Source: Phoronis australis | Lineage: Eukaryota; Animalia; Phoronida | Length of the DNA stretch: 64,000 bases | NCBI GenBank assembly: GCA_002633005.1 | Contig: NMRA01000118.1 | Location: 310,707 to 374,706, forward strand | Direction: 5' to 3' | Shown: one piece after another, positions 36,001 to 63,433 of the stretch | Numbering within the stretch: the first letter of the stretch is position 1 | Layout: each line of letters begins with the position of its first letter | Notes under the pieces: generated by a model | What the model saw: the letters and a program-made list of their open reading frames with translations, nothing else | The model's database searches: none | What the model was told of the DNA's origin: nothing | Made by a program: the position numbers and the translations under genes

Positions 36001-39000
36001 ATCCCAAGGATCAGTGCCGATGAACCAAGTATTGTTGACATACTTCCACTGAGGCCACGCAAAGGACCAAGGGTCATCCAACAGCCACCAATTCCAGTGT
36101 TTGTACTCAGGAATGGCAGTGACACCCCCCTTCACAAACTGGCCGTTCTCACAGGTCCAGTGCTCCTCACTTGCTGACTTGAAGTTGGCACAATTAGCAG
36201 CGTACACATCCGGATTATCGGGACTAAGTTTGGTGACCATCTTTACAGCAGTCTGATAGAAATCCCTCCACGGCAGTTGGCCAATCATCAAGTTTCCATT
36301 GCGGACATAGAAGTTGTCACTGAATACAGCAGGTATGTCAAGAGATGGAATCAACCTCTGAGCAAACTGTAGGATTCCCATGAACCGGTTCAATGATGCA
36401 CCCATCACGTACCACGTGCCGTTTCTGTACTCAGGTGTGGGTACAGGTACGGAGGAATCAAAGAGGCCTGCCACAACCTTGACATCAATACACCTGCGTG
36501 TGTCACTGTTGGTCATCCACGCTCCTTTCATGCAGTCATAGTATGTGATGTTCCGCGGATAACTCCCACGAATCCAGGAACCATCAGTCCCATAGGGCAT
36601 ATAATTCAAGAAAAATTCGTCAAATGGCACATCACCGACATACCACTCTCCCTCTTTCATGTGGATCTCGCCCCACTTTGCTAACCACATATCATTAAAC
36701 ACCCAGGTTGTGCCAAATTCATATCGGCCAACGTCCACCCGGTTGCCTTTACGCCATTGACCGTCCTTGCAAACAAGTTCATCGCCTTTGTTGGAACACT
36801 CAGCAAAATCCCTGTCCAAACTCTTCTCGAATTTGGTTACATTTGCTACTAGTTGTTTCATAAACGATGGCCAAGAAATGTCACTGATGCTCACAGTGTT
36901 GTTCAAAACATACAAATCATACATAAATATGTAGGCATCTTCATCAAAATTGATGAACCTGTGAAGATTTTGCAACATTTGCTTGAACTCATTCCATCTC
37001 ATGTCCAATACATGCCAGCTACCATTGGCAAACTGCGGCTGCAACACTGTCTCAGCTTTCAGAAGGGCGGCTTTGATTTTATCAAACTCAATGCAATTCG
37101 TCTGCTGCGGTACATCAAGCCATGGCCCAAGGATGCAGTCAGCCCAGGTTTCATTTCTGCGGTACTTTCCTTCAACCCACTCATTCTCCACAAGCTTATG
37201 AGTTGTGAAGAACTCCTCCACTGGTTTACCCTTGATATGCCACTCATTATTCACAAGGTACCAGTCAGCCCACTTCCAACTGTCACTTCCCAGCCAGAAT
37301 GTGCCATATTTGAACACAGGTTTGGCTGTAGTCTTTCCTTTCCAGAACTGACCATTGCGACACACCCATTCTTGATCTTCCTCTGGATTCTGGTTCCCAC
37401 AATCCAACACGGCCGACTTAAGATCCGACTGGAACTCGTTTATCTTAGCCTGCACAAAATCAACCATTTTACCCCAGGACATGTCACCAATCATGACCGT
37501 TTGATTAACCACACGTGGCAGCCCAAACTTCACTTGTAGACCAGCAAATGAAGCGAAAACATTCACCATTGAATGAAATTTGGACCAGGGCATATCTGGT
37601 GTAACCCACCACTGGCCAGACTTAAACACAGGCTGTTTGGAGAGACGAGGCAGAAGTGCAGTATATTCCGACACATTTAGGCACAGTTTGGGCTTGGTCA
37701 TGTTAATTTTAGTCACATTCAAGCAAGGCAACCATGTGTCTTCTCTCGGGTACAGTCCACGTATCCACACATTATCAATCAACTTGTGAGTTTTGAAGAA
37801 CTTGTCAAATGGCATTTCACGCACGTACCATGTTTTCTTGTCCTCACGATAATCCCATGGGTCCCATGCCCAAGGATCATCTGACAACCACCACTGGAAA
37901 TGTCGATACTCCGGCTGGGCAGTCACAGTGCCTTTATGAAACTGTCCGTTCTTGCATTCCCATGTCATGTCCTTATTTGGATCTTCGTTAGCACAATCAA
38001 GCTCTGCACCACTAAACTGACTTGAAACATCGCGAATAGTATTCAGAATTCCAGTGGCAAATGTTTCCCAACTTGAGTCACCAATCATAATTGTTTCATT
38101 CACTACACGTAGTGGTTTACCAAGATTTGGCATCGGAATACTTAACGTGTCAAGGACTTTCTGTACCTTAACAACAAACTCTTCCAGGACCATACCTTGA
38201 ACATGCCATTTACCTTGCTTGAACTGAGGCGGGGACAAATCGAAACCTCGCAGGAAGCCTGCGAAGTCTACGCAATCTTCTTTTTTGGGTTTTGTTGATG
38301 GAATAACAGCGTTGAGGCAGTCAAACCAAGACTGGTTCTTTGTTAGTTGTTCATCGTACAACCACTTACCATTCACAAGTTTGTGAGTGTTGAAAAACTT
38401 CTGCCATGGTTCAGTACCGACAAACCAAGTGTCCTCTTTCTCATTGTACTGGAATTTCTCCCATTTCCATTGGTCGTCATTAATCCACCACTCGCCATTA
38501 CGGTATTCAGGTCGGCCTTGTTCAGAACCCTTCCAAAACTGCCCATTCTTACAAATCCAATCATAGTTTCTGTTCGGGTCTTGCTTAGAGCAGTCAGTCT
38601 CTATCTTGCTCTTTGACGCATCCCGAATCACGTTAAGCAATTTGTTAGCGAAATCGTCCCATGTATGTTGACCCACTATGATCGTTTCATTCTCAACTCT
38701 GGGAGGCTTCTGAAGACCATCTATGGGCACAGACAACAAGTCTAGGATGGTCTCCATCTTCTTAGCAAACTCTTCCCAAACCATGCCCTGAACTCTCCAC
38801 TTTCCTTCCTTAAACTGAGGTGGCGCCACATCAAACTTCAAAAGAACGTCGGCAAAATCAATGCAATCTTCCTTTTGTGGTTTTGTCATCTCGAGCGCAC
38901 CCTTAACACACCCTATCCAAGATTCATTTAGAGGTAAGAGCTTAACTGGCATCCAAGCACCATTAACCAGCTTGTGGGTGCTGAAAAACTTATCCCATCT

Positions 39001-42000
39001 TTGGTTTCCAATGAACCAAGTATTTTCCTGCTCGTTGAAGAAGAATGGATCCCATGCCCACTCGTCTTCATTAAGCCACCAGCTTCCGTACTTAAATCTA
39101 GGCACAGCCTGTTCACTGCCCTTCCAGAATTTCCCGTCCTTACACTCCCAATCATATCCATCATTTGGATTGGAGTTCTCGCAGCGCATCAGTTTTGCTT
39201 CCATGCTAGATGAAAACTCAATGACTGGCTTTAAGTGCTTGGCATAAAACTCCTTCCATGACATTCCTTTTACAGCAACAGAGCCATTGACGGGCTCAGG
39301 TTTGAAGGAGTCATCCACAAGAGGAAGATTTGTAACCTGACTTCTAATTTGCTTATAGAACACAACAAACTCTGACCATGTAACATTCTCAAATCTCCAC
39401 GTCCCGTTTTTAAAGTGTGGAGTGAGGGATTCAGTTGAATGATTAAATAGTTGCACGAACTGCGTCAAGTTGAGACACTTATCAGGACGCAGCGAACTTA
39501 TCCACTTGGGATCCAAACAGTCCAACCATGTTTCCTCTCGGGGGTAGATACCTCGTACCCACTTATCATTAATAAGCTTGTGTTCTTTGAAAAACACATT
39601 CCAAGGCATGCCGTCAACAAACCACGTGCCATTCCTGAACTGCCACGGTGACCAATGCCACATGTCCTCCAAAATCCAAAATTGTCCATGTTTATACTCA
39701 GGTTTAGCCTTAATATGGCCCTTCAAGAACATGCCATCCTTACATTCCCATTGCAGATCCTTCAAGAAGTCTTTATTAGTGCAGCTGACCTCTTCACCTT
39801 CAGGAGTCAGCGCCATCTTTAGTATATTACCAGCAAGTCGGCCATATTGGTCTAGCCATGACTCATTTCCAGATTTCATTATTACAGAGCCATTATTTTC
39901 AGAAAACTCTAGGTCTAAAGCTGGAATCTTTTCAAAACCTCCCCTCTTAGACAAGATGTCCATTACGTGTTTAAAGATGGTAGCATGTGATTCCAGACGA
40001 TTGCCCATATACATCAATTTCTTACCATCAAATCGAAGAGTTTTCGCGAAAGATGTACTGATAAACTTGTTCAAATAGTCAAAGTCAATACAGTCATCCA
40101 GAGGGAATACGTCGAGTGAAGAAGCAGCCAAGCAGTTGTACCAAGTGTCTTCAGGTAGGAAGAAGCCTGGTATCCAGTTATCTCGTACCAACTTGTGGCT
40201 CATGAAGAACTCTTCCCAAGGCATGCCATTTACATACCACTTTCCAAACTTCTTCTCCCACTTGCCCCAATGCTCCGGCCACATATCTTCATCCAACCAC
40301 CACGACCCATTGCGGAACTCTGGGTAAATGCCACTCAACGTTCCATTCACAGAGCTTTTCATGAAGCCGTCTGCCTTACATTCCCAAGAGCCTTCCTTCC
40401 ATTTCATGCAGTCAACATCAGCACCCCCTGGAGTCTTTTGAAGATTCAACAACTTATGAAACAAATCATTGACAAAGGATGGCCATGACTGGTTTCCAAC
40501 CACAATCTTTGATCGAACTGTTTTGTTTAGGGATACTGTAACATTGGAATATTGTGCTCGTGCTACAATAGAGTGATTACTGGGGACATTGCCTTTTGCC
40601 AACTTGAAGTAATAGTTGAATTCGTCAACATACATTTCCCATGGTTTGCCATCAATAAACCACCTTCCGTTGATGTTTTCAGGTTCCAGAGAGAACAAGT
40701 CTCCTGCTGTCAATGTCTTGGCAATCTCATCAAACTGGATACAGCCGCTGTCTGTGTAGTGTTTGTCCTTAAGCCAAGGATACCAGTTGGCACAATTCAA
40801 TTCAGCTGCCTTAGCCATCCCCTCCATCGACAACAGATCGTGTATGTTCTTGTCAACAAACTCAGGCCACGTAACATTCCCAATATAAACGGAGCCATCC
40901 TTCATGAGTTTGGGAAACATTGTGAAGTTCTTGCCATCCGGAGCCATCTTAACCACTGACAAACTGTTGTAGTAGTTCAACAGTCCCAAGTAATCAGTCC
41001 AGCTGATACCATACACAGACCAGGTGAATGTTTTGTTATCTAGTTTTGGTGGATCATGGCGACCAGGGGTATCCAGCCATCCACGTATCTCGTCATAGTC
41101 AAGGCAACCTTCTAGCTGGATGTCCACGTGCTTGACGCACCTTGCCAAGGTGTCCTCAGCTGAGAAGTTACCATGGATCCAGTCCTTTCCCACACGTTTG
41201 TGAGTACGGAAGAACTCGTGCCAGAGATAACCACCAATCCACCATTCCCCATGTCGTTTGTAAATGGTGCCCCATCGGTCATCCCACATCTCTTTTCCCA
41301 GCATCCAATGACCTCTGACACGTAGAAGACTCATGCCTCCCAGGGGGCACTTTTCGCAAAGTCCGATTTCTGCAAAAAGAAATGTACGAGTTGTCTAAAT
41401 GATAACATCATACAAAACCTAACATTTGACAGATCTGTCTTCAGTATGAAGTTGTTTCGTTGGTGTAAAATTAACAAAACGCAACTAATTGCTAAACAGA
41501 AGAGATGTCACGACATTAAAGCCCAGAATACACCATCTATGCCTGGCACACCCAGGTCCTGCAGCAGACCTGATTGGAACACCCCTGACTTGTTTCATTA
41601 ATATGAGGTGAATTCAGTAGGGCTAGTAGCTTGCAACATTGGCAAGAGAAAGGTGAGATGTCACCATTCTATTTCAACTGAGGCAGAGCATCTGATCCCA
41701 TTAGTCTTCAGCCACAAAGTACACGCGTTGTGGAATACATCCCATGGCAGTTTGCTATTACATGTTCCATCGCCATTCTGACCATCACACAAAGTAGAAT
41801 CTAACAAGGGTGCACTTGTGTAACAAAGGCAGGGAAGATAGACCTTCTGTGAGGTGGAACACGCATTCCGATCCTATGGTGAATATGGTTTCCTGACTTT
41901 TGTACCCAATTTCAAATATTCAACGGTGTCTTTGGAAAGGCTAATATCAAATATTACGCTTGATGTGTTGATATCACAATTAACGTAAAATAATGAGTAT

Positions 42001-45000
42001 TCTGGAAACTTTCTACTATGATTCAACCTTGTGGTCAAGACATCCAATCACAGTGGTGCTCGACAAGTGAGGACTTGTGAGATTCAAGCAAAACCTTGCG
42101 TTACACCTAAAAGCGAGCCAATAACACGTCACCTTTCACCACCATATCTGTGGAGTAGTAAATCCCTAGAGCTCCTTGGTACACTTCGTGAACAGCATGA
42201 ACTATTTCCCGTGTGATGTTGCTCACGAAAGGCCACTTCAGTAGGGGTATAGTGGCCTTGACCCACTCCATAGCACTGCAAGGGAGACAACTCATTAGTT
42301 GGCTTACATAACAACAGTGTACAGACACAACATAGCATATGAAACCATCATACATCAAAGTTAATCTCTTCCATGTAGAAAATTAAAGATTGCTACTGTG
42401 AACTAAACAAAGAATCAATCAATGAAATCCATTTTTCAGCAAATGTTCACCCAATTGTGAAATTCGGATGAGCTAAATATGACGACTAAGTTCAAAACAA
42501 GAGCAATGCAGAGCTTCCCTTAAATACACTTACTACTTTAGTAAAGATCTGGCAGTGGCTTTAGGAGATACAGCTATGGGCGCAAAACAAAACAAAACCA
42601 CTACTAGGAAGCGCCACAGCAGTCAAAGTCGTCATCGCCAACTGTCCTCTTCACACTGAGAACATAATATGCCAATTTTCAAAATCATCCTTCCTTAGTA
42701 TGGTTTGGTTGACAGACGGGTGGATGCCAAAGCACACTCAAAAACAGTAAAAATGGCCATTAGGTGGCACAAAAACCTCGAATCCATCTGAAAATGGTAG
42801 CATACCATCTGATACTTCTCTAATAGATGCTTATATTCCAAATTTTATGAAATTCCGTTGAGGACCTTTGAATATACAGTGGTAAACGTAAAAAAAATAA
42901 ATTGCCACTAGGGGGCACACTGGTGAAAAGATTTGCACGAAAGTCGTTCGTTGTCAATATCATATTAATGCACTAGCTAAATTTAGTAAAGATCCTGCAA
43001 ATGGTTTATACAGCCATGGGCATAAAAAACAAAACTGCCACTAGGGGGCGCCACAGTACTTGAAGGCATCGGAAAATCTTTGTCACCCATCCTTTTCATA
43101 GTAGGAACATACATGCCAATTTTTTAGAGCGGTTTGATTGATAGAGGGGAGAACACCAAAAAGCAGATTCGAAAACAGTAAAAATGGCCACTAGTAGGCG
43201 CAAAATCCCTTGAATCCATTCGAAAATGGGAGGATAACGTTCTCCCACTAATAGATGCCTATATCAGAAAGTTTATGAAAATACGTCGAGGACCTTTGAA
43301 GATACAGAGGAAACCACAAAAAACTAAAATTGCCACTAGGGTGCGCACCAGTAATCTGATCCCTGAAAGTCGTTGTCGTCCGTTGTCAACATCATATAAA
43401 TACAATGCTAAGTTTAATAAAGATGCTGCAAACGATTTAGGAGATACAGCCATGGGTGCAAAAAAAAACTGCCACTAGGACACGCCACAGTAGTCGAAGT
43501 TGTCGGAAAATCATCGTCAGCCATCCTTTTCATAGTAAGAACATACATGTCAATTTTCACAATCACCCTTAGAGTGGTTTGGTTAATAGAGGGGTGGGCG
43601 TCAAACAGACTCGAAAACAGTAAAAATGGCCACTATGTGAATCCATCCGAAAACGAGAGGAAAGTGTCATTTCACTAATAGATGCCTATATTCCAAATTT
43701 TGTGAAAGTACGTTGAGGACCTCCGAAGATACAGAGGTAAGCATAAAAAATAAAATTGCCACTAGGGGGCACACTGGTAGTTAGAGAGGTCCGAAATTTG
43801 TCGTCATCAGTCGTCAGGTTGATAGGAACACATCTGCCAAATCTCATCAAGATCCTGTGAGTGGTTTAGGAGATATAGCTGCGGACGCCAGACGACGGAC
43901 AGAGATGACGGCAATATGCGACCACATATAAATACGTGGGTGCATAATAAAATTGATTTTGACAAATTCATGAGTTGAAGTAACCTAAGTGTCATAAACT
44001 TAATGTTTTACAGTAAAACCTTAACAAGAACACAATAACTGTCCAGAGGTTTTACCTGGCAGCTTCCCAAGCATCACCAGCTTTGTCCACGACATCAAAG
44101 ACCAACTTAGACCAGCTGGGTGCATGATGTGACACTGATGCAGATTGATTTTGCATCTCCATCATGGCTTGTTGCGACACCATATCAATGGCGGCGGAGA
44201 AGCTATCAAAGAAGTTGGACACAACATCTGAGGTATTCAGAGTGGCGTTGCCAACTTTGGGAACCAGCTGAAACGTAGAAATGATTGTTAATTCAGTGTA
44301 CATGTCACTTGTTGTCACAATGCAATAAAAGCAAAGAAAGAGGAGGAAGGCTCAAGAAACTCAGCGAACTCCGGATTAGTAACAAAATAGTGGCCTTCGA
44401 ACAGAGAGATGAAATAATTTATCCATTCCTCCGGTTTAATATTCGTCAAGAGGCTCAAGAGTAATGGAGGAGACAGGCTTGAGAGTAATTCTACTTCCAA
44501 CACCCTGCATGAGCAGGCAATCTTTCACTATATCAGCAGCAGTGATCGAAAATGTTGGATGCTGACAGCCTGCCAGTACTCTTGATAACCACCAAACTGT
44601 AGTCCAACACGACCTCATAAGACTGGCATCGTCAGCTTTGCTTATAAGGTAATCTGACACTTGCAAGTACCTCCAGGGGTATGCAGATCTTAGCTATGTC
44701 ATACCGATTCGCTTCATGATTTCAAACAGTGACGCCTACCATATTGATGAGAGGGCGAGACAGGTTCTGGTTCTGACCCACAAGATCGTCCAGTAGTCTT
44801 GACACGTTGACCTTGCACACTTCGTTGAGTGATGACTTGATAACAAGCTCACTATCACACGGATTCTTTCCACTAATTATCATCAGCAACAGTTTGGAAG
44901 GCTGCACACAAAGTGAGAGGCAAGTTAACTACAGCCATGTTAAGTAATAAACAGTAGTCTTTAAAAGTTGGTAAATGGCGTGGAATTCACCAAACTTCAT

Positions 45001-48000
45001 GGAAATTATGTCAAAAATCCATAAACAAACTTGACATATTAATTACTTATAATTTTTTTTTGGAAACTAAGCAGCAAGATTTTTTCAAGACTTCACCAGT
45101 GTTGATGAGAAGAGGTCGTGTATACTTCTCATTTAAAAGTAACAGTGGTAGCCTAAGTGCCTAAAGATCAAGATTAGCCATATACCTGTCTTCCGTCAGA
45201 ATTAGTCATATACCTGTGTTCCATCAAAAAGTAAACTTTTGTTTAGACCATTTACTGCAGCTGCAAAATTATCTCAACTTATTCATCACTCAAATGAGAA
45301 GTTATTCATGGGTTTGCAAAGAACTGTCAGTTTGTCATTAATTGAGAATAAGCTCGACACATAAAATTACCTGCCGTGACAAACCAACTTGTACAATGCG
45401 GTTTCTAGCAATAAAAAACTGCTGGCTATTTTGAAGGCATGAAATCTCCTATAACTTGACTAAGGCCGAGAAATTTGAGATTAATGGTTTGAATCAAGTT
45501 GTTCTTTGTGACGAAAAGCAGAATTACAGTTTGATAATGAATAAATGATTAATACATATTATACTAATTTAATAACTTTAATACTGACTCACAGATACGT
45601 TCTACTAACAAAACTTTGTTCAGTATAGTATAGTGATATGAAATGGTGGGATATCAACATGTATATCAGCCTTAATTAGCGCCGCTGCTGTCGTTTTTCA
45701 AATGCATTGAGGGATGACTGTTACCTCCTTAACACCTGGTGACATCATAGATAATATGGGTATACACACCTGATAAATGTGCATTTTGTGCTGTGAAATT
45801 TAGCTTCAGTGTAATGGTGCGTGCCTCGACAATCATTTGCGCATAAGACTTGCTAAATACATTGTAATAAGTAGATCTATTTTCAGGCCGATTTTTGTTG
45901 AACTTCTTTTATTTTGTATTTTTAATGGTTGTTTAGAGGTATGTTGTAATGGAAGGCATAATGAATTAGAGATGAATCTTGATAGAATTAATGGCAGTGT
46001 ATAAAAGGGTTCCACCCTGGCGAATACTAAACACACACTGTGGAACAACTACAGTAATTTTGGATTACACGCAACAAACAAGTGACAGCCAGTTAGCCAG
46101 TGGATCACCTTCAAGTTGTTTTCAAAAGTAAAAATGGAAGACAAAACGCACCCTAAAATTTATAGAAAACTCATACCAAATCAAAATGGCCAGTTACATG
46201 CAAACATTAAACTTGCAATAACTTACCTCTTCTCCAAAAACCTCCAATAATGCGGTGATATATTTCTGTGGCGATGACGCCCATGATACAACTTTGTCTA
46301 ATTCATATCGATCAGTGAGGTTGAATGCTTTTGTAAGATCTAAAAACAGACAAAAGACCCTTAATTTTAATTGAGCTTTTAATTCACACACTTGACACGT
46401 GCTCAACACCAACACACTTAGTTAAATCACTGCATTAGTTTGTGCGCCACTTGACAATTTCTATATGATATAAAACAAGAAAACTGTAACCCACAGGATC
46501 AAAAGAAAGTCCAGTGAAAAGAATAATTTAGCCATACCTGTGATTCACATCAAAGTTTCGGCCTCTGATGCAAATACAGAAGACTAATTTTAACAACCTG
46601 TTGTGGGGGGTTCAACGGACTCAGTGAATAAACTAAATAGCAAGTGCTGTTTTGCAAAACAGACCTCAGGAATTATGTTGAGTAATTAAGATCACCATAG
46701 ACATTCGTTTGTAGCACAAACTTACCTAATTACACCAATGATAAAGAGACCCAAGGACATAAACAGCTGCAGTAAATACTAATATTTTTACAATGTTCTG
46801 TCTTTCCAAAGAACTTATCAACAATAAACTCCCTTAACATCATTGTCCGTGCATTCATGCAGGATGATATTAAATGCCAGGTTTGCATTACCTGGTAAAT
46901 GATGGGGCAAACGCGTGAGGAAAGTTAGTCCTTCAGTCATACGGTCAACCAACTTAGCTCCCTCTGGCGTCAACTTTTCTGCATATGGTCTGAGAAGCAT
47001 TGGTGATTGTTTCAGAAACTTCATTCCACTAAAAATAAAACAGTTATTATAAAAGCTTTACAACACAATGAGACACAAATTCAACCTGTATCAGATAAAA
47101 ATCCATTGATAAGCGTTTATAGAAAGCCATATTAATTTAGCAACACTTTGCACGGACTCCTATCAAATCATTTGAGCAGTTTGCTAACAGTATAAGTGGC
47201 AATGAACAACACAACCTGACATCTCAGGTCACCAGAACACGATTAACTATACATTTGATGAGGTAGATAATTATACCAATTGACTTGAGTGTCTGGTTTT
47301 CAGATTAATCACACAACATCAACAAATACAGTACATTACCCATCAAACAGCATCTGACTAATCACACAACATCAACAAATACAGTACATTACCCATCAAA
47401 CAGCATCTGACTAATCACACAACATCAACAAATACAGTACATTACCCATCAAACAGCATCTGAACTTCCTGTGCTTGAAATCTAGCGAACACTGCCCCCC
47501 AGCGAGATGGATTGGCAAAGCCAGGGATGGGCATTTGGCCGGTCGCATAGCCCATGATTTGTTGTGGTAGTACGACAGCGACTTTATTAGCCAGCATCAC
47601 AGTTGACTGCAGATCCTTGACAAACTTTTGCAAGTCGAAAACTTTGGGATTTTCTGGAGAGAACTAAAGGTAAAAGAAATAATTTGCTGTTTTGTCAAAT
47701 GAGTTCCAGAAAGTAAAGTTAGCCTTAGACTAATTTAGAGTTTGCAGTTTTACTGAGTTTTTGGCTATTCTAAAATGAAACAGTATCATGATTAGTAAAG
47801 ATGCCCCACCAAAGAGTTTGTGACTTAGCTTCAAATAACATAACACTTCTGGTCTCAACTAATTGTAACTTAATCAAATGAGAAGTGCTTTCTAGGTTTG
47901 GAAAATAAGGTTTGTTTAATCAATCAGTTTATTTCTGTAATAATCGCCATAGGCCCAAAGTACAAAAGAACAACGTGTAACCTACTTAAGAGTGCAGCAA

Positions 48001-51000
48001 GCTACCACGGAGTCAAAATGCACTTTTTGTAACCACTTGTATTCTTGTAAGTCCCATATTTCGGCTCCATGACAGAAGGTAGGGTAAACCATTACATCAA
48101 ATACCTCAAAAGACACATGTGGTTGAAACATGCTCGAGCTTCCGTGAAGATCGACTGTCATGACGACCTTGGTGGCTTAGCCAACAGGGTCTGAGTAGCC
48201 ATAGTCCACAATAATTTTGGCGTGAACACAACACCAACTAGATACTTGTAACTGGAAACCACTTCAAATTTTTTCATGTCATTGTCAGAGATCATGCTCA
48301 GAACTTAAAAAGACCCGCTAGGACCAGATAATTCAATACGTCCTCTCTCAAAAATTAGAAACTTTCTTGACAAACCTAGAAATTAAATTACTGTATCTGC
48401 TGAGTTAAGACCAATTTCATTATGCTATGTGGTCTAAATCTCAAGTCTTTTCTTATCGTAGGTGGGTATACAGTAGATTTTCAAAACATTGAAAACTGCA
48501 CTTAATAAGTATTTCACTCACGATATGATACATCTACTATACCGACTACATCGCTCATTTCTCTACAGTGAACACCTAAAATTTTACAAAATCTTAGAAA
48601 CATTATATGGAGTAACGGAGTCACCACAAATCTTGAACAGGTATGTTCGAAACGTTCTCTTTCAGCGGCCGACTCAGACAAAAGCAGTGTCAGAAAAGCT
48701 GATAACATCTAAGCTCCTTAAGTTGGTGAAGTGTTCCACAAAGGTTTATTTCCACCGTCACAACACACGCACACCATTCACCTCTCATACATCAAAGCGT
48801 GCCAAAACTCAATGAAAATGCATGTAAATTACTTGTAATAAAGATTCTCGTTTGTGGGCATTTTGTGAATATAAAAGAAAAAAAGTTAGCATTTGCAATG
48901 TAATTTGTAATAACAACAAGAAGCGGATTTTTGAAAAATATACCACTCTATTGCTTATTTTTAACAGCATAGCAAAGTCAGGATGGATAATTTTTTTCAA
49001 TAGTACTTTCGAAGAAGCGAGGTGAAAAGTGGCATATTACTTTGGATAAAGCAGCTAGCCCACTATGGCAATTGCAAAACCATGCAGCTGAACAAATTAG
49101 ACTAGGAAAAGTTAATATTATACGGATAACAAATGAACATCATAACAAAAAATTATATAAATACCATTTGAATCAGAGGAGCAACAAGATATTGCATTTG
49201 CATGAGTTCCCCCAGCGCCATCTCTGCATTGAAATCATAGCAGATAAATCGACCAAGACTGGTGTTGCGAACAACCGTCATGTTACACACAGGGACATCA
49301 CCGACAAACTCTCTTGTAGCAGATTCAATCTTTAAACAAAAAAGAGTAAAATAATGCAACATTTACATCAATCACATAACACGACACTATGTGACAATAT
49401 ATTATGCTTTTGAAGAGGTAGAAGCAAGTTTAAACAAATGATTAGAGAAGATACATATTACATGATCGTGAAACCAAGTAGACTCAGATCAACAGGACAG
49501 CCCACTAGCAATTAAGGCATTCTTGAAATAGACAATACTGAAAATTGGTGTCACATGACATCATGACCAGACAACAACTTTGATTAATCTGTAGCGGCTG
49601 CGACAACAGTCGCTACCATACAAGATCGTTTTCAACGTGTCGAACATTAGCGTACTGAGGCGACGATGAGAGCAGGGTGTTGGTGGCATGTGATTTTGAT
49701 CCCACTGCTAATTTCATATTATGCTCTTTGCTAATAATTAAAGCACTGTGGGTTGATGACTGACTGGCTCCCACGAAAATTTCGTTGCACTGTACTGGTG
49801 TTCACAGGCAATAACTGCAAGGCCCTGGACCATGAGTCAGACAACTTAAATCTGACCCCTCCGTGAGTAAGTTGCAGATGTTGTAATTTAGAATCATTTC
49901 ACATCTAACACATTCTAGGTTCAGATAATGAACCTTTCTACAGGTGCATAATTGTAGGACATACATGTTCCTCACCACATGTTGGCTGAAAATGTATATA
50001 ATACATTCCCTCGTTTCATTGGTTGGTTCGATTTGCTTGGTTGACCAGCGTCCCATAATCCATTTCAAATACTCTGAAAATTCCTAACCGCACAAAGATC
50101 AATCGGCATGAGTGCGGGAAACAGAGAGTGTCACGGGGACAAAATCACCTGACTTCCAAGAACAAGAGCAGAACATACACTCTGAAAAAATTTGTGCTTT
50201 CTTACCGTCGAGGGGTTCATAACCATGTTAGCTATCTCTTCAAACCAGTCAGGTACATTATCTAAAGTTTTCATGACCCTCTTCAACTCCACTGTATGAT
50301 TGAACATGGACAGAGAAGCAATAGCTGAAATGAACAGAGATTATTCGCATGATTTGTTGCTGAGTAATAATTACTACGATTGTTCAATTAGGTTTTGTAG
50401 CTCATGGCAATATTGATTAAGATGGCTTAATATTGGTTCTGGTTTGGAGCAATTTAGATTAATAGTGCTATACTTTGTCTTATATTTTTAGAGCTTGGTC
50501 TATGGTGCTATAATAAATTAATAACTTATAAACATAAAATAATCTTGAACAGCATTTTTATATTGCATCTCGTCCATAAACAAGAACTGAATAGTCAAAC
50601 CAGAAATCCAAGAAAATTCAAAATAAGGCATCAATAGAAAAATGTGGCTCAAAAATAAAAATATCAAACAATCAAAAAAGTCATGCATCTACAGCTCCTA
50701 AATTGGTTTTGATTGATGGCGTTTTGAGCGATGGCATTTTGAGCGATGGCATTTTGTGTAATGTCATTTTGAGCGATGGCATTTTGAGTAATGTTGTTTT
50801 GAGTGATGGCATTTTAAGTGATGGCACTTTGAGCGATGGTGTTTTGAGCGAACGGTGTTTAGAGCAATAGTGTTTTGAGCAATGGTGTTTTGAGTGATGT
50901 TTTGACCATATGTCAATGTGTGGTGGACGGCAATGACTTACTTGGAGCCATGTCCAACATCTGATTCATGAAGATGATGCCATGGTGAAGTCTTGCTGTT

Positions 51001-54000
51001 AAGTTCGCCATTTCAGGGCCGAGATCACTCAGTACAATTTGTACAAGAGGCACAAAGTCCTTGACTGTCTCTGCAATGCTGGAACACATATTGCAATATG
51101 TAATTAGTTTGTAGCCAATTTTGACATTTCCCATTAATGAAAAATCCTTATTACAGTCATTGGAATGTTGGTGCTTTTGTAGACAAGCCGAATCACGGAT
51201 ATTCTGAATATTGACATTTCCACATTGCATTTATATTCAAAGTAGTCCAAATATTCAAACATCAAAACACTGCTTACTCAATACTCATATTTGTCACATG
51301 GCCGCTGATTCGACCAAACGAGGCCATCCAAGGTGCAGGATTCATCCACATGGGGAGTGCTGCTGTGCCATTCATGATGTCTCCAATTAACGTTGGCATT
51401 GTGCCAACAGTCTTGAGGACTTCATCAACCATGGTTTTAATGTTTGTTGTCATGCGGGATGCATTGAACGGAGCCGTTGAGTAGTCAAATGACATCTATC
51501 AGAGCAACAGTATCAAGATTAAATAACCTCTCAGTCAAAGCTGAATTTTTCCCAAGCTAAAAAACAAAAATCGAATTAGCACTAACCCCATAAAATATAT
51601 TCCTTACCATGATAGGATTCCATTTCCCTTACTCACTCAAGTCACAGGCAATAACTACATGTGCCATTATCGAATTCAGTTTTATGGTTGACCAACGTTA
51701 ATGAACTCAATTACGAGAGCGTAAAAGGCCTAATTCGATTTTCGTTTTTCAGTCAGTTAAACAGAGCAAAATGAAGATAATGAAAATACACCAAGGAAGT
51801 CATTGTAGCCAAAATGTATGCCCACGTCAGGTGATAAACTTATAGACCAGAGGATAAAGGCCACCAAAGGGGGTATAGATCTCGTTCAATGGGCCAATTA
51901 GTGTTCAGTTGGCGTGATTATTACTTCTGGGACCCAAGTTTTTAGCTATTTATTGGAAAGTAGTTCCCAGCATAGCTTATCAGCTAATTAAACTCGCATC
52001 AATGGCTCTTGTTGGAATGTATTAAATGTGATCAAGAAAACAAAATTAGCTTGGTCGGACTTCGTGCAACCTTGAGCATTTTTTTGTACTTCAAGATGGC
52101 GTCAACCGCCACCTTGAATGTTCAAGATTGCACCATATACAATTTGTAAAAGAAAACTGTACAGTAAACAACATTGCAGGCCAACTTTTTGGTAAATAAC
52201 ATGTAAAATTCACTTAGGACAATAAAGTTCATTTACTGGACAAGAAATGTGAAGAAGAGACGCAAAATTACTTTGATAAAGGTGGGAGAATTTGGTTAAA
52301 ATGCATTGACCTGAAACTTGATGCAAATCCCAAGAAGTTGAAAGTTAGCTTATAAAAAATTATGAAAAATAAACAACTACAAACACTATAATTGTCCTTC
52401 TCCCACAGTTTTCAAGCCTAACTGGCAAAACTAAAGACATTTTACCCCTCAGCTTGAACCTTGAGCATTTTTACAGCTAGTGTGTCCTTACCAATTTGAC
52501 CAGTGGACCAGTCATTTCATGTTGAGCGACTTCAATCAGTAAAGTCTGGTAACTGACCTCCTTGCAGAAGAAGTGTACTAGAGTGGCATTCTGCAGTTGT
52601 GGCACAGTGCAGATGTCCACGCCAGCAAATACTTGCAGAATAACAGGTGTGAGCTGGAACAGAGGATTGCAAGAATGCCAAGTGTTGAAATGAATCGGAC
52701 TGAGGTAACATGTAACTAACAGAGTCTTGAAAACATCGAGTCATACTACGCAAGGCACATGGAAATAAAGAGTTATAGTATGTAGTCTGCTGTGGAAACA
52801 AAAATATGGTCAAGTTCTGATGGAACACTTTGCCACAAGGGGTCACTGCAGGAACACTGCTGGATACCTTTTTTCACCAGAGCTTGTCAATCTTCCTCAG
52901 AAGGGTGCACTGGCCCTGAAACACTGGCAACAAAATTTTAACCAAGATCCTGAACCGAGACAATAACTTCTGGACCAATGCATAAGAATGCATTAAATAA
53001 AATAATTATTTAAGAAAATGATTAACAGTGACACATACCTTATCAGCCGAGTCCAGTCTGTAAAGTAAATCTTCTAGCATGCTTGGTAGGGTGTCCATCT
53101 TTTGAACTATTTTCTTCAATTCAACAGTACCATCAAATTTCAATTGGTTGATCAGATCTGAAAATAAATGTTATCTTGCTATCATACAAGATCTGTACAA
53201 CGACAGGGACTTGACCAAAAGTAAATAATTGGTGTGTATTGATAATATAACAATGAACCACCGACCAGACTGCAAAAAGAAGGTATTCATGTTTTGAAAT
53301 ATATGTGAGTTTTCAAATAGGACCTGCGTTTATAATGAAGCAATGTTGTTTTTTGTGTAAAACATAGACTTTTTTGAAATATAAGTCTTTATCCGTTCAG
53401 GATAGGTACCTTCAGACAATCTTAGTTTTTGTAAATAAATGATCTCGGTTGGAATTCCATTTGATGGATCTGTCATTTATATTGATTTCTACGTCAAAAT
53501 TAAATTGACTTCGGTTGTTAAACTGGGTCGGAGAGTAGTCCACATTGAATAATCTTCTTGCTAAAAGCAACACAAAAGATCAATCCAAATCAATCTAGGC
53601 GGATATTAAATATAAATGACAAACTCATCTCATACAAAACGTCAACATGTCAGTTGTCAAGGCCTTTCATACTGATAGAAGTCAGAGATCTTGCCCACCA
53701 AAATTAATTCACAGTCCTCCATCAGAACACAGAATCTCTCATGAAACCCTGAAAATTCCTACCTTGCATAAATCTATTGACTCCAATACCAAACTTGACT
53801 CCATCATCCATCATGGCCGCCATTGCTTGGACCTCTGGTGTCATGGTGCTGAGAAGCTGCTCCAGTTGTGGTAGATAAGACATGGCTGTGTTCAAGTAAT
53901 GCATAGGGCTGTAAGACATAATATTCATTTACATTAAGGGTTAACACATGACAATTTTCATCAGTTACTCATTCTCAATTGAATTGTTTTTGCTTGCTGG

Positions 54001-57000
54001 TAGAATCTGCAATTAAGTATTAAAAGTCACATGCAGCAAACTCTTTGACAACCTTTGATTTGGTTCACGTCATGATGTGGAACACTTTGTTTTAGTCACT
54101 TAATACTTACAGAGTGATTATCAATTGCACATCGTTATAGCATGGACAGGATGTAATTCATGATACCTTCATCCTAAAAATTCATTGCTGCTAAATTGAT
54201 TTGGTCTAATTTGAAGATTACGATTCCTGCTCGACCTAATTGACATTGTATAGGACTTATAGACTTGGATAGATGCAATTTCGTTGAGGTCAAAGTTGGC
54301 GTACAGTTTAGATCAGTGCCACATTTTCTCCTCAGACGAGAAACCCCGTTTTGTTTACAATAATATGAACACCACTAGGGGATGCCACAGTTATCTACAA
54401 ATCAACGTCAGCCATAGCCTTCTAGTCAGGAACACATCAGACGTTAAAGTTTCAAAATCATACTTTAAACAGTTGGGCAGATAAACAGGCAGAGGCCAAA
54501 GAACAGAATAAAAAAATAAAAATTTTCACTTGGCTGCTAGGTGGTGCAAAAGTACATCAAATTCAACTTAAAATGAAACAGCATCGACGCCTCTTTACTA
54601 GAAAACTATTTGCCAAATTTCACAAAATCCATAAATGACCTCCGAAGATACAGAGGAAAATGTAAAAAATAAAATTGCCACAAGGGGGCACAGCGGTTGT
54701 CAGATTGATGTGAAACTCGTCATCATCTGTTATCAGCTTATGATAGGAAAACATCTGCCAAATTTCACAAAGATCCTGAAAACAGTTAAGAAGATACAGC
54801 TGTAGATGCAAAAAAACACAAAGGGGTACCATATTAGTCGAATATGCCAAATCTGTCAGAAAACAGGAAGGTGATGTCGTCTCCTTCATACACATCTATT
54901 TGCCAAATTTCAAGAAAACCTATCAAGGGTCTTCCAGACTTGAAAATACTAAAGCAAATGTAAAAAAAAACAAAATTGCCCGGCACTAGGGGCCCTAGCA
55001 GTAGTCCGAAATTTGTTGTTGTTAGTAGTCAAATTCATATGGAACACTTCTGTCAAATCTCATTAGGATGCTGCCAGGCATTTATAAGATATATAATGCA
55101 GCAGCATACGATCTTGAAAACCCAGAGATGGAGGCAATATGCACCCACTTATCAATATGTGGGCACATAATAATCAAGAATAAAAATGTCGAAAACAAAA
55201 CCCCAATTCTGCAAAATTAAGGCCACCCAAAGTATCAGGATAATTTCATAACATACTCTGCACTGAATCCCATGAAATGCATTGCAACTCTTCCAAAGAC
55301 TGTCCCCCAAACTGTGCCGTTCATAAAGCGAGGCATCGGTATTTTTCCACTCTCAAATCCCATGACTGTGATGGACATCTTCTCAACCATTTTCTCCGCC
55401 ATCATCACGGTTTCTTCCAAAGAGCGACCGAACGCTTTGGCATCAAAGTAGTCATAAAACTCCGAAGAAAACTAAAAAGTAAATGGACATCACAATGGCT
55501 TACACAAAATTCTTGAATCATGCCCAAATGCTCTGTAGAACATGTAAAATGATGGCAGATCACCCGACAAAATACAATTTCAAGCACAGCTCCGAGTGGC
55601 ATTGATGATCCACCATTTTTTTATTAAACCTCTCCGTCATTTGGAGCTCTGAGTTGCTTAGTGAAATTGTGGGGCCAAGCTGTGGAAGCCAGACTTGAGC
55701 GAGATGTAAGTCTGTAGGCTATGTCTTTCAATTGCAAGACACTGAGTTTGTTTGAGACTCAAGCCACATTTGCACTGCATTGCATATGTAACCAGACATC
55801 GACTAATCCTGCTATGGCAATGTGACGTGTCTCATCGACAGGCCGACGCCGACGGGTATACTACTGTACTCCTACATGTACTATTCAAGTACTAGTAACA
55901 GGGGCTTTAGACAAAACAGCTAGAAAACGAAGCTCGATATATTTTGAAACACAGATTGCAATGCTTTTTTGTTTGAAAAATATTGAAAGGAAGCGAAGTT
56001 ACGACAGTCACGATCACTAACTGACTCAGTAACACTACACTATGCCGCATTGCCAATGGCATTGGCGTAGTCAGAAGAAACAAGTCGAAAACAAACCTCA
56101 GTTAGTAAATTGAATTATGACGCAAACTCACCATCAACGTTAGTGGTGTGAACATTCCATTCTTGCCCACCAATTCATCCATTAACACGGACTGGTCTAC
56201 TTGCTTGCAAAAGAAGTTTCCCATTGACATATTGAGGACTTGTGGAATGGAACACATGTCGGCGCCAGAGGCCAGCTGCATCAACAGTGGAGCCACCTGG
56301 TGGTAAAACAAAAACTGCGGTTTGCCGCGAAAGGGAGGAACATACCATTAAATAAAACTACTCCGCTTACAAGCTATCAGACAGTTATTTAGTTTCATAC
56401 AACTGTAGTAGCCTTTTTAGTCACAAAGGGTTGCAATACAATTTCTCTGAAAATTCAACACGTCTTATCCTACCTGTTGGAAATCTGTCGCCATGTAAAT
56501 AAACTCCTCTACAATTTCTGGTGCATGGTTCAACAACGACGCGAACTTTTTCATCTCTGAAGTGCCGGCGAACATAGTTTCTTTTGGGAATTCTGTGGAC
56601 ATAATAAGCGCATGTGTGACATGATAACCACGTCCAGGTAATTACAAACGTTCATTGACTGCTTGACCGCGCGTGGCGTGGTCAGTACTTGGCATTGACA
56701 GGTGTCAGTCCGAGGAACTAGGCCCTAGGCAGTCCGCAGACCAGAGCCCTCACTGGCACATTGTGGCGGACAATAAAGTCCATGTTAATCCATGTTAGTT
56801 CACATCGCACCAGGGAATCAACAAAATTCTTTTATACCATTTCAAATTTCTAGGCTCTGACAGGCTCAAGAGGCAGACGATAATAGGCCACTTGGCAAGC
56901 ACGAGCTTGGAACTTCGATTTCAGATAGGCCGGCTATATAGGAAACCGGAGACACGTAGTGAAACCAAAAAAACTTTAATAAGGCTTTGTAGTATTATTG

Positions 57001-60000
57001 GCCGGCCTAACCCGGCCTGGCGAGCACCCGCATGACTACTGATGCGTTGTGTTGTATAATTTCCGAAAGCTGTTGTATCTGAAATCAATACCTTCGACCA
57101 TCACCATCAACCGTTTCAAGAAGACCAATCCTTGCTCTAGTCTGACGAATAGTTGACCGTCATCCTGAGATACTTCCCCCAACACTAACTGGACAGTGGG
57201 CGAGATGATCTTGATGTAGTCTTCAAAACTGAAAACAGTCGTTTTAACTATCTCTAGAATACAATGCGTTGTACATGTAGGTCTCATGCTGTAGCCGAAT
57301 TTGAATTTTGTGTCTTGAGTTTCAATGATTTAGGCTTACATTGCGCGATTGCTGTTTCATACTATCTAAGTTGGACTACCAATTTTTAAAATGTTTCGTT
57401 CATGACTCATCAAATCTCGGCGTTTTAAAATATTTCAGTCACGAAAAGATTACTTACGTCTTGTTTCCAAATGACTCAAAATATCGCCCCAATCGATGAA
57501 ATACTTCGCCCCAAACTTTGTCGTTCACCAGTCGCTTGCGCCAGCGTTCCTCCGGCCACATTTGGTTGTGAATGCGATATTCAAATTTACTCATCTCTTC
57601 TATAACCTGGTAAACGGATTTCACTGTTCCTTGAATGTTGTGTGCCATTGAATCGACATCGAAGTGTTCCAAGTTGCTGTCACTGAACTGCAAAAACCAG
57701 AGCACGCTTATGACAAACTGCGTTACACAAGATAGTGAGTCACGACTGGTGCAGCACCAACGGACAGTAGAACCATCTTAGTTCACGAATCAGGAATGGT
57801 TGGGAAGATCGTCGGTGCACGGTAGTATACTCCTGCTAGTAATGCATTAAGAAAGCACGTCGCAAATCCTGCTTAGCATTAAATTCGGAATTCATAATTA
57901 ATTATTTTAATAATATGAAATATTCACAATGTATTCACATGCCGTATAACACATTTTAAAGAGCAAAAAGGAACGCTTATCACGATGAAATACTTCGCGT
58001 GTGTCCAAACATTTATCCATAGTAATAAGAATACATTTGCGGCACTTTCTCGTGAAAACAAAATTTGCGTCCCAAGCAATTGAGTACGTAACATTGTCAG
58101 TTGGAAATTAAGCTAAAAAAATGTATTAAATTCGGTTCGTTTTAAAAAAATTCGATGCCACGTCAAAAGACTATTATTTGGGCTTAGGTTTCGAATAAAA
58201 GGGTTTGTGTAAAGACTCGTTTCATGAAGTTTTTAACAAAAATGAAGCGAAAATAGTGTCTTTAAGTAAAACAAGAATGAAATACCATGAGCGACTCAAA
58301 CTCATATGCTATAAAAGTACAATGTCAACAGTTCCCGTCAAGAGGATAAAAAGTTCTAAAACACTTTATGTTAAAATGACATATACGTCCAGTCGTGAGA
58401 AAATATCCGTGGCGCGGCTACTGGAACGTACTGAGATTGTCAAGAATTCTCATGAAGTTAATTAAGTGCAAGTTTCATCATTTCCTAAGACGTTCAACTA
58501 TCCCAACAAAACAGTTTATGTTACATGACAATCCCGGGACATCTTGTGTTGTTGTTTACTATGTCACTGGCCAGTGCCCACTCATTGTGAAACCTTATAT
58601 GCCAGACAGCTGATATATATTGTAATTAGAGTTAATAAACTTTGTGTGTCAGTAGAAACTCAACGACTGTGATAGTTGTTATGCTGCTCTTCACCGACTT
58701 GCTGTTGCTACCTCGTTAGCCAACTATCTACCGTTCAACCAAGAACCGGGTAACCCAACTATACTGACTACCACGACCTATCCGTACTCTCCACATTGCT
58801 GATGTCTCCACAGCTTGCGTCTCAAATTGCAAGTTGTCGCTGATGCGCGCTAGTATGAAACCATTAGACGCCATCGGGTTAACAAAGCCATGACAGCATG
58901 CTGTAAGGAACGTTGTGAGATATCGTGCACTGTTCTGAGAAATTTTTGATACGCTCAAAGCTGTGCCAAAACTCACGTGACTCATTAGTAATAGGATACA
59001 CGTAATCATCAACGCATTTTCGGAATAGTGCCGCACCTTGGGAAAAAGTTGGCCATTGACCTTTTTACGGATAAATGTAAACAGTGAAGGCCTAAGTGCA
59101 ATGGAATTGGAAATAAAACACCTTCTTCACAGATTGCCACCAGGGGTCCCTTGCAAGAAAGTGACTCAAGATTTAAAACAGAAATTTGGGCTTACGCTCC
59201 ACACAACTAGTACTGAAGGAGCCGGAAAATCCTAGACCAACCGATAACCATGTACCAAATTTCAGAAGTCAGTTCAAAAGCGACTCAAAGTTGTCTAGGA
59301 ATCTTTCCTTGAAACAATGATGACAGTTCACGGTATTGAATGCAAGCCTGAGTCCTGGACAACGTCAAGTGAAACATTCTTGCAGCTTAGGGCTCAAATT
59401 GTAGGCTTATTTTTTCAGATTATCTCTATTTGTTCTTAGAAATTACTGTACAGTTTGTACCAGACCATTGTCCAGAATCGTGCCAAGTTGTCATGAAAAT
59501 GTAACGATGTGTTTGGAAAACAAGCGTAAGCTGATTATTCGCTTTACTTGTTGGTTACCAATCGGCGACAGTGGCCCCAGGCACAAATCCTTAACGACAG
59601 GCTTTTCATTTGAAACCACAGGTCAAGAATAAACAGTTAAATTTCCCTCTACCCATCCTACTCTCAATCATCATAGAATACACGATGTACTTGGACACGT
59701 GATTTCACAACTAGATACTGGTAACTATTAACTAGTTACATAATATGAGGCTAAGCCTACTGATGTATGACCTTAGTTATCGTCAAGTGTGTGTATTTGA
59801 CCAAATATGCACGAACTGTAAATTTTAACAGAGTAAAAGTATACATTTCCTGAGAGTAGAAGGCTTTTAGAATTTAATTCGTAACTATTATAATATTCGG
59901 TCATTTGACGATGTGGTTTTAGTAAATTTTACCCAAAAAAGAAAGGTACATTCATAGCAAAACAACGGCATCAATAAGATGATTAATATGTCGCTCATGA

Positions 60001-63000
60001 TACCAATGTTTTCGTTTCGTGCAAAGTTTGTAATTTTAATAAAATTCATATTTTTCAATAACCCCTCACGCCCAATCGAACACTTCAACAGTGATTCCTA
60101 ATAGTATTTTACAAAAAGTATTGCATCTGAAAATTTCATATGAATGCCATCAACTATTTGAGAGGTTTGATGTTGCTATGTTAGCCAAGTTCGGACATTT
60201 TTAGTGTTCTAGCTAGTGCTACAGCACTTAATATTAGAATGGGATTCAGTTAATTTATGGGAAAGGAGCCTGTCAGCATTGCAAGTACAAGTTCCCGGGT
60301 CGGCACGCGATGCAGCCTTCTCTTTTGCAATATAAGCTTTTCTCTGCGTCTGACAATCAGCACGTAACGTAGTCGTGACCGCTCTTGACAAACTGTTTGC
60401 ACAATGCATCGTTGGGTATTTGGTTAGAAAATCGCCAGTTGGTAACTGGAACTCAGAGAATAGGGAAAACAAATTCTACGACAGGTAGTAAATTCAAGAA
60501 CAAACTATTTGCTGGCTTCTGTTTTCTCAGTAAAGCAGCGAGCATTTTGATATAAAATTCTTTGTAAACACAGAGACGCTTACATGTATGTCCCATTCAG
60601 TTGAAGCGAATCATGTTTGAACATGTAGTACGGGCGAACAAACGTTCATAATACTGAACATAGAAGCTTTCTATGTAGTCAGCCTTGCGCCATTAGTATC
60701 GGGTATCCTAGTGAGACAGCTTTTGTATCACATCTGAGAGACTTTTTACAGCGCGCAATACTTATGCAATACGATTGGTTTGGAGAGTTGTCTAACCAAT
60801 AGTTATATTTATTTCATTGTGTCTAACTCTTGATGATCAGCATCTGAAGTCTCCACTTGTCTTATGAATGCGCGTAAAGCCTTGTCTAATACTGAGCTGT
60901 TAACAGTAGTTGTTGACTTGGGTTATTGATAACTCCACATTCTATCAAAAAATAATAATAAAAAACGAACTATTGATTTAGACCATTTACCGCTATAGAA
61001 TTGGTCTCTACAAACAACTAACAGATCGTTATTGCTTGAAACCTTGTTTGGCTCACAGTGACAACAGGGAAATTGAAGAGCACGGTCTCCAGCTATAACG
61101 AACTGTCGCTTCCAGCTTTGAAGACCTTCATCTCCATCCAATATGACAAAAGGAACTATTTTGTATTAATTTCATAACGGTAAACGGTCTCAACCGGGTT
61201 CGTTGTTTTTGTGATGGAATATGGGTTTAGGCCGCTTTGGATAAAAATACAAAAAACATCCAATTGAGATATTCACATGACGCCCATTGTATACCCAACT
61301 ATGCCCGCAAGGAAACTTTAGGCGAGAGTACACATGGACGAAACACTTGAGCAACCTAAGAATATAAGTGCAAATACTTGCAGGCGTGCAATACAATGAA
61401 CGTAATGCGAATGTTGCGTGAAGATTTGATTGGACGCACATTTAATCCTTGTTGAGCTATAGTCAGTAAACGACAATCAAACAGGTATCACTATGGCTAC
61501 GAGGAATTACTTAAACACTCTCAATCAATATTGTATTAGTTCCCGGGTTGAGATACACGATAGGTGCTCACGTGCCGAAGAAGGAAGAAGACAGACAAGT
61601 TATACGCCTGCCTAATATTGAACCAGTTACCCGAGTTAGCGGCAACAAACGCGGTTTTCTAGCTGTAATCAGCCTCAAGACGGAATCGAAATCACAACCT
61701 TAGCGGACCTAAACTTTAACTGACAAAGTCGCCAGCCTCTATTTTTGCAGATGGTTCGTAATTTGTGATGAAATCAGAAAGAAACTGACTTCGGTGTTTT
61801 ATGTCTTTGTTCATATCTAAATATAATAGTCCGTAAAGTGCATTTTCGACCGTAAACTGATTATGCCAATATAAAAGTACGTTTTGATTGAATTTGTTTT
61901 CCAACAAACAAAGCGCAGAAATTTGCTCTGAATGAAACAACAGTAATGGGACTTGCGTAACTCCTTATAAAGGTAGGGTTTATGAAAAGAAATTCTTAAC
62001 CACTAAATGGCCTTTTGTGCGTCTCCACGGAAGCCGCTTTATTTATTTACACACACAAACTTTGGCAAAGAAACGTATCAATGCAACAGGAAAGTGAGAA
62101 CATTTTAAATAACGTTGAAAAGGGACTCAAAAGAATTAATGTCTACTGGGTGCTGGTGCACTATAGGCTAACACAACCTCGAAACATACAGGGTGCTTCT
62201 ACGCGAGGCCGATACAGCCAACTTATTTCAGTATGTGCCACCTATGACAGGCCGAAAGAGGCTGAGACCTTTTTTCAAATAAACTCTGCAACAGTTTTTT
62301 TATCGCAACCAATTGTGTATTGCTATTTACTCGCGAACTTGTCACCGAATCAAAGTTCTTTCATATCTCCCTTTGCAAACATGTGCTTGACACATGATGT
62401 ATTTTCTGAATTTTACAGCGTCAGTGCAGTTGCGGTCCCGGCGCGAGATATGTCTGCGGTGCACGGAAAAAAGAAATGAAGCTCGTGAGAAAAGAACTGC
62501 GTTCGTTGGAAAATAACAGTGATATTGGAAACATCTGCGCTGTCAGTGAGGAAGAAATATAATCTAATTCAAGTAAACTTGAAATTAGTCGATCTGACCG
62601 TGGGCCTGAACAGGGCAATAAAAGATAGCATTGCAGAACAATTTTTGTTTGTTGTAGCGACATCGATGTCATTAGCCGAAAGTTTCGCGTCCAGGATAAT
62701 GACAGCGACTACTTGTGATAACTAAATATAATTATTAAGCAACAAAACTTACAATTTTCAACAGAGAGTGCATGATGCGAGACTTTGACCCGCTCATTTC
62801 GGCGAATAACTCCTCCCAGTTGGTCTTGCAGATGATAGATACAATATCTCGAACCTGGATGTTAGAGTTTTCTCCTAAATTGACATATGGTTCAAGTATC
62901 CGAGGGTCTAAACATGCAGCCATCGGGTCATCCTTAAGTTTCAAGTACATCGGGATGACCTGCGAAAAGAGAACGATATAACACCGACTAACTACATGCC

Positions 63001-63433: not shown

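Follow-up and report, generated by a model that had tools for sequence, protein, structure and literature searches.

The REJ domain is the defining feature of the PKD1/REJ family, for which lectin, PKD-repeat and WSC heads are known and most of whose invertebrate members are, in the account given in PMC1934368, without an assigned function. Cleavage at the GPS motif is reported for SpREJ3 and polycystin-1, and sea urchin SpREJ1, SpREJ8 and SpREJ9 are members with a single transmembrane (TM) segment and variable heads (PMC1934368). Here, a stretch of 64,000 nucleotides (nt) from contig NMRA01000118.1 of Phoronis australis, called the window throughout, was analysed. It contains an array of 20 exons that runs in frame into a gene with a predicted single-pass PKD1/REJ-family layout, array and gene lying entirely on the minus strand. 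The array likely encodes at least five tandem copies of a predicted all-helical domain of ~210 residues with one likely disulfide. An earlier, sequence-only reading had described a duplicated four-exon cassette; the REJ/GPS context was absent from it.

The complete gene model is free of stops and comprises 47 exons and 4,618 residues with an open N-terminus; GT-AG ends are present at all 46 introns. Both a REJ match and a GPS motif, which mark the PKD1/REJ family, were found. The REJ matches are spread over three consecutive exons in the order of the Pfam profile (E 9.2e-08, 1.2e-04 and 0.12, one of them above the curated cut-off) and span positions 54-205 of 452. The exons flanking them showed no REJ match when scanned singly, the complete six-Cys domain being compared only exon by exon. 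The predicted TM helix at the end of the chain has a hydropathy of 3.41, and the sole other peak above 1.6 reaches 1.83. Neither a PLAT domain nor an 11-TM block was detected in the model by Pfam scan and hydropathy, and no seven-transmembrane (7TM) domain follows the GPS; there is one TM helix and then a stop.

Comparison with the described proteins revealed both likenesses and differences. With SpREJ1, SpREJ8 and SpREJ9 the model shares a REJ domain, a GPS ahead of one TM helix, a large multi-exon gene and a variable N-terminal part, and SpREJ8 and SpREJ9 also have partial REJ domains. However, the sea urchin proteins measure 1,450-3,274 residues against more than 4,600 here, and they carry C-type lectin, EGF or Ser-rich parts where helical cassettes, Trp-rich and Cys-rich repeats are predicted in Phoronis. 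Human PKD1 and PKDREJ resemble the model in REJ and GPS, predicted cleavage and a very long ectodomain, but the modelled Phoronis chain lacks PLAT and the 11-TM block and ends ~50 residues past one helix. Adhesion G protein-coupled receptors have a GPS with intact His-Leu/Ser as well and gave the best PDB sequence matches of the GPS exon (E 0.03-0.06); in contrast to them, the model has no 7TM domain, contains REJ, and places a Ser/Thr-rich stalk of ~55 residues between GPS and membrane. For fly Cirl, a single-pass isoform is known (PMC13197933).

The exons of the array have GT-AG ends and recur from 63433 to 42133 in the order A-B-C-D (Table 1), with the order, sizes and phases given in the sequence-only reading; 137 nt is the exact length of three of the five B exons and 119 nt that of three of the five C exons. 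As read, the array is C0 D0 A1 B1 / C1 D1 A2 B2 / C2 D2 A3 B3 / C3 D3 A4 B4 / C4 D4 A5 B5 / giant exon. Homology of cassettes was assessed by pairwise z scores against 300 shuffles and by leave-one-out profiles, that of end pieces and single exons against 1000 shuffles. All six pairs of the four full A-B-C-D cassettes scored z 14.8-34.6 at 23-29% identity, which 0 of 300 shuffles reached in any pair. Leave-one-out profiles gave E 9.7e-25 to 5.1e-40; it was on such profile-level similarity that the sequence-only reading had staked its proposal. All four share the positions of their three internal introns (alignment columns 77-78, 126 and 166). Partial cassettes had been placed at both ends, and for C0+D0 this is borne out (0/1000 shuffles), but A5+B5 is marginal (3/1000) and homology of A5 alone is undetectable (127/1000). 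When the window was scanned in six frames with the cassette profile, the 16 training exons came back together with C0 (E 0.004) and no other match fell under E 1, so that no hidden cassette exon appeared in the 5-kb D0-A1 intron; since D0, A5 and B5 were missed, they are too divergent for single-exon detection. When the DNA was compared with itself, the only similarities were repeats within introns and one local duplication, which involves the end of A4. No exon-to-exon similarity remains at the DNA level, and the cassette duplications are therefore old; protein homology has been kept, and the old tandem duplication suggested before is supported.

Where the repeated unit begins was less clear. 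The A-B-C-D register, earlier taken for the unit of duplication, has the 0-0 phases claimed for it and is phase-symmetric, but it became doubtful when the array was divided as C-D-A-B. Five whole periods with phase-1 borders then fit into the window, and all are significant in leave-one-out profiles (E 2.4e-20, 4.8e-40, 4.8e-33, 1.1e-37 and 1.8e-09), the fifth scoring 24.0 bits against 9.3 for the best of 1000 shuffles. Units 2-5 share just 17-26% identity, with helix pattern and length kept. The last period stops exactly at the phase-1 giant exon, after which more 1-1 exons follow; the D|A joint is conserved and apolar, the B|C joint variable. Phase-1 introns on both sides, the border type of class 1-1 modules, are thus present in this register. 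The weakness of D0 alone (33/1000 shuffles) weighs against it. On balance, it appears reasonably probable that the duplicated unit was C-D-A-B, copied long ago by recombination in introns. As a building process, intronic tandem duplication is ordinary. Multi-exon domain repeats that arose by internal tandem duplication are known, among them the four-exon blocks of nebulin (PMC1553488), and animal extracellular shuffled modules are overwhelmingly of class 1-1, the common ones being mostly beta and the mainly-alpha share negligible in the data presented in PMC8001218. The array resembles nebulin blocks and class 1-1 modules in an exon pattern shared by every block, a phase-symmetric unit and a very probably extracellular setting. 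It differs from the common class 1-1 modules, which are mainly beta, in that the Phoronis unit is predicted to be alpha-helical and is large.

Each full cassette has just two Cys, located in exon D, in agreement with the single Cys pair proposed earlier. The motifs claimed for the exons were recovered in part: N..W...F.R is present in 4/4 full-cassette A exons, G..F in 4/4 full-cassette B exons, and two Cys 13-27 residues apart in 5/5 D exons, of which four show CK and four PL, but TVELK(K/R) is exact in only two of five C exons. An N-glycosylation sequon occupies one shared column of the Cys loop in three of the four full-cassette D exons and, together with the Cys pair, is a sign of an extracellular location. 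Amphipathic helices were supported by a helical moment of z 3.4-4.9 at 100 degrees against shuffles, compared with ~0 at the 165 degrees of strands. No membrane-spanning segment was found in the cassettes, the highest 19-residue hydropathy window being 1.32. Met makes up 4.3-10.3% of each A-B-C-D cassette and up to 26 of 215 residues (up to 12%) of a C-D-A-B unit; four of the five C-D-A-B units are 45-47% apolar and 17-20% charged, the first 42% and 27%. An AlphaFold model of exon D2 alone has four short helices at a predicted local distance difference test score (pLDDT) of 60, which is too weak for interpretation.

Transcription was examined with four RNA runs of the same species, ~18-19% of the reads of each raw-read run being mapped; junction counts refer to the junctions listed. 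In the first mapping (44001-64000, 18 modelled junctions), six junctions were confirmed at the exact modelled bases by 39 reads in total from runs X1 and X2, on the expected strand. Skipping of the cassette as a unit, suggested before, was not borne out: no skipping joint is among the six junctions, a weak test at an exon depth of only ~1-3x. A second mapping, made at 92% likeness, covered the exons from the giant one to position 24,500, and its junction rows were dominated by an intronic repeat. Sense RNA covers both the array and the region from the giant exon to 24,500 in X1 and X2 (giant-exon depth 1.4-6.3 and 1.1-5.5, respectively), X3 being near zero over both. Ten variants were listed in cassette exons, six synonymous and four residue-changing; with about one quarter synonymous by chance, the pattern leans towards purifying selection in this small sample. 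In the C1/D1 region (56007-56673), opposite-orientation reads exceed sense reads (depth 1.3 in X1, 0.9 in X2), possibly reflecting an antisense transcript or a repeat.

The GT donor of B5 is in phase 1; the giant exon starts 763 nt away at a phase-1 acceptor, and no stop interrupts the frame. Given phase, open frame, distance and the matching pattern of RNA coverage, array and REJ part very probably form one protein, which would make the array extracellular. It is very improbable that the array is a separate upstream gene or that its first unit is unused, the in-frame link to the REJ gene not being real. Such an arrangement would accommodate the absence of the linking junctions among those listed, the lack of coverage upstream of C1 and the length of the D0-A1 intron (5,065 nt, the longest of the array). 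It does not fit the two phase-1 splice sites just described, the opening of the giant exon at an acceptor, or the likeness of RNA depth, strand and run pattern on either side. Nor does it gain from the signal-like exon in the D0-A1 intron, since introns yield candidates of this kind by chance at 0.54 per 5 kb (nine in 83,492 intronic bases, both strands). This candidate, an open reading frame at 58788-59009 (-) with a weak phase-0 donor, was rejected as chance.

For array and REJ part as one protein, the best explanation overall, which we hold at slightly less than even confidence, is that at least five helical units at the outer end of a single-pass polycystin-1-like protein of more than 4,600 residues bind hydrophobic ligands. 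The protein would belong to the PKD1/REJ family as a type I surface protein, its units likely outermost, carried at the tip of a ~3,400-residue stalk (Trp-rich, Cys-rich, REJ). From motifs, the chain is predicted to be cut at a putative furin-like polybasic site, after which a likely helical, putative GAIN part follows, and at the GPS; with two predicted cuts, the outer part could stay tethered or be released. The stalk would hold out a hydrophobic groove or cavity whose walls are the amphipathic helices. A role of the units as a head that binds lipids or other hydrophobic ligands is a tentative proposal, favoured because of their low charge and Met-rich amphipathic helices.

Several observations weigh against this account. 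C0, D0, A1 and B1 have no RNA reads in the runs mapped, and no reads across A5-B5 or B5-giant exon are among the junctions listed. The single-pass end is a model, RNA having been checked only upstream of it in the transcript (window positions above 24,500), and the signal peptide falls outside the window. Because A5 alone shows no detectable homology and the array begins beyond the window as well, the register is left unproven. The cavity is a proposal, the one structural model, of a single exon, being of low confidence (pLDDT 60), and apolar Met-rich helices fit an ordinary helical bundle too.

The units of the same gene could be structural, stacked bundles that extend or self-associate a shed ectodomain in mucus, cuticle or an egg-coat-type matrix and have no small ligand; a coral REJ protein does occur in skeletal matrix, into which its shedding was proposed (PMC4890752). 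The persistence of helix pattern and length in units 2-5 at 17-26% identity is consistent with this, as are the long repeat arrays making up the remainder of the ectodomain. The composition of the units, in which charged residues make up 17-20% and Met up to 12%, argues against it, spectrin-type rods carrying more charge, and a structural role was considered rather unlikely.

It is quite improbable that the unit is distantly related to one of the known helical domains that handle lipids (ABCA-type ectodomain, saposin-like, NRF-like or apolipoprotein) and came onto a REJ scaffold by shuffling. In favour, internalisation of cholesterol depends on the long N-terminal region of ABCA13, in which no recognised domain is described in PMC7948424. 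Against it, exon-sized searches gave no sequence match to ABCA12/ABCA13 ectodomains, apolipoproteins or saposins, and neither the transmembrane nor the nucleotide-binding domains of an ABC transporter were found downstream of the array among the 47 modelled exons. Saposins have six Cys in ~80 residues, the unit two in ~210. Also in favour, the unit is loosely like ABCA ectodomains in its size, its helicity and a helix that comes after the Cys pair, and like ABCA12/ABCA13 ectodomains, apolipoproteins and saposins in amphipathic helices, few Cys and a probably extracellular location. The earlier ideas of lipid binding and of a likeness to apolipoproteins or ABCA proteins were neither borne out nor contradicted by exon-level Pfam and PDB searches, which were blank. 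When compared with exchangeable apolipoproteins, the unit proved to be amphipathic and had no Pfam match at exon level.

The Pfam, NCBIfam and PDB sequence searches of the cassette were run with single exons or exon profiles. No Pfam or NCBIfam family was found at cut-off for the cassette exons tested, and exon and repeat profiles gave nothing under E 0.1 in PDB; these insensitive results count against a known lipid domain. No match was obtained among 372 candidates of 3,393-5,000 residues with the giant exon, among 1,080 proteins of 134-2,000 residues with the A-exon profile, or among 4,933 of 372-2,000 residues with the Trp-repeat profile. The ESM Atlas yielded nothing usable for the Trp repeats and, for exon A2, only viral hypothetical clusters with low recognition; metagenome and viral DNA scans contained no relative of cassette or Trp repeat. 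A HMMER search of 1.84 billion representatives with the Trp profile returned one match (E 1.7e-06), to a Thr-rich repeat protein, which was rejected as the sum of six stretches of less than 9 bits each; that protein has no match to the cassette. These negatives are weak because exon-sized queries were used, very long proteins fell outside the length windows, and presence of the lineage in the libraries had no positive control, the protein of the window itself not being returned. No description of a REJ/GPS architecture with helical cassettes and Trp-rich repeats was found in the literature, where supplementary domain tables or subscription papers may list similar proteins; PMC12716839 contained nothing pertinent. 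Taken together, the most likely order of roles is a head for hydrophobic ligands, then a structural or self-associating part, then a remote version of a known lipid fold.

Table 1. Exons of the array and features of the downstream gene model (window positions; phases given as start-end; reads are those spanning the junction)
Feature	Position	Strand	Length (nt)	Phase	Remarks
Exon C0	63300..63433	-	134	1-0	11.9 bits, 0/1000 shuffles; no RNA reads
Exon D0	62753..62959	-	207	0-0	Cys-x27-Cys; divergent; alone reached by 33/1000 shuffles; no RNA reads
Exon A1	57458..57687	-	230	0-2	no RNA reads
Exon B1	57092..57228	-	137	2-1	no RNA reads
Exon C1	56474..56592	-	119	1-0
Exon D1	56132..56296	-	165	0-0	Cys-x14-Cys, N-glycosylation sequon inside loop
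Exon A2	55257..55471	-	215	0-2
Exon B2	53763..53908	-	146	2-1	B2-C2 junction, 5 reads
Exon C2	53039..53157	-	119	1-0	RNA-supported
Exon D2	52492..52653	-	162	0-0	Cys-x14-Cys and sequon
Exon A3	51278..51495	-	218	0-2	A3-B3 junction, 6 reads
Exon B3	50942..51078	-	137	2-1	B3-C3 junction, 8 reads
Exon C3	50206..50324	-	119	1-0	C3-D3 junction, 6 reads
Exon D3	49165..49329	-	165	0-0	Cys-x14-Cys and sequon
Exon A4	47446..47663	-	218	0-2
Exon B4	46892..47028	-	137	2-1
Exon C4	46227..46339	-	113	1-0	C4-D4 junction, 5 reads
Exon D4	44740..44901	-	162	0-0	Cys-x13-Cys; D4-A5 junction, 9 reads
Exon A5	44056..44267	-	212	0-2	degenerate A; RNA junction with D4
Exon B5	42133..42275	-	143	2-1	degenerate B; in frame with giant exon; alone reached by 17/1000 shuffles
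Giant exon	35553..41369	-	5,817	1-1	Trp-rich four-Cys repeats of ~200 residues: eight full, one near-full, one half
Cys-rich repeats	28914..32648	-			five exons, DCxGxC-type; 36 Cys in ~305 residues; no Pfam/NCBIfam family
REJ	21450..22837	-			three consecutive exons; Pfam REJ positions 54-87, 94-130, 136-205 in order
Polybasic exon	15929..16520	-			RRRR and RHRR sites, then likely helical part
GPS motif	12439..12675	-			Pfam GPS E 1.5e-07, 32.2 bits (cut-off 22.5); His-Leu/Ser intact
Last modelled exon	7832..8088	-			predicted single TM helix, tail of ~50 residues, stop

Exons upstream of C0 fall outside the window, and the copy number of the array is a lower bound. The giant exon contains 6% Trp, 39 Cys and 35 sequons. 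One Trp-rich repeat was modelled at pLDDT 80.5 and a predicted template modelling score of 0.53, with short beta hairpins and helices; no clear structural match was found for it. A 24-nt microexon of phase 1-1 is predicted directly after the giant exon (35283-35306, -), and the Cys-rich repeats are followed by a region of likely beta domains.

Repeats of other kinds were noted in the window. At 47306-47463, three identical 53-base-pair (bp) copies duplicate the end of exon A4 including its splice donor, and use of the second or third copy would shift the frame. The B3-C3 intron contains a 15-bp minisatellite of ~13 copies (50706-50899). One interspersed repeat family occupies 42520-43950, 54447-55173 and ~26600-26950; RNA reads from other loci are abundant for it, and its copy in the A5-B5 intron has a 434-bp period. 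Broken reading frames at 2600-3640 (+) presumably resemble the end of a LINE reverse transcriptase and a zinc-binding part.

From these analyses, the architecture comes close to being demonstrated and all functional steps are inferred. What is new are two uncatalogued repeat domains, the helical unit and the Trp-rich repeat, on a known kind of protein. It is unlikely, and speculative, that the C-D-A-B block represents a lipid-binding class 1-1 module, all-helical and so far undescribed, which, with the likewise undescribed Trp-rich fold, would make of a polycystin-like GPS protein a sheddable lipid carrier or sensor; in the papers found, such a role is not described for the REJ family. The locus provides a REJ/PKD1 member with two repeat domains for which no relatives were found, each small enough to be expressed and solved, and the Trp-rich repeat may be as interesting as the helical cassette. 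If the 1-1 borders are true, the unit would be a large alpha-helical exception among shuffled modules that are mostly beta, as far as those in PMC8001218 are concerned. If lipid binding is true, a single-pass GPS protein would gain a defined class of ligands.
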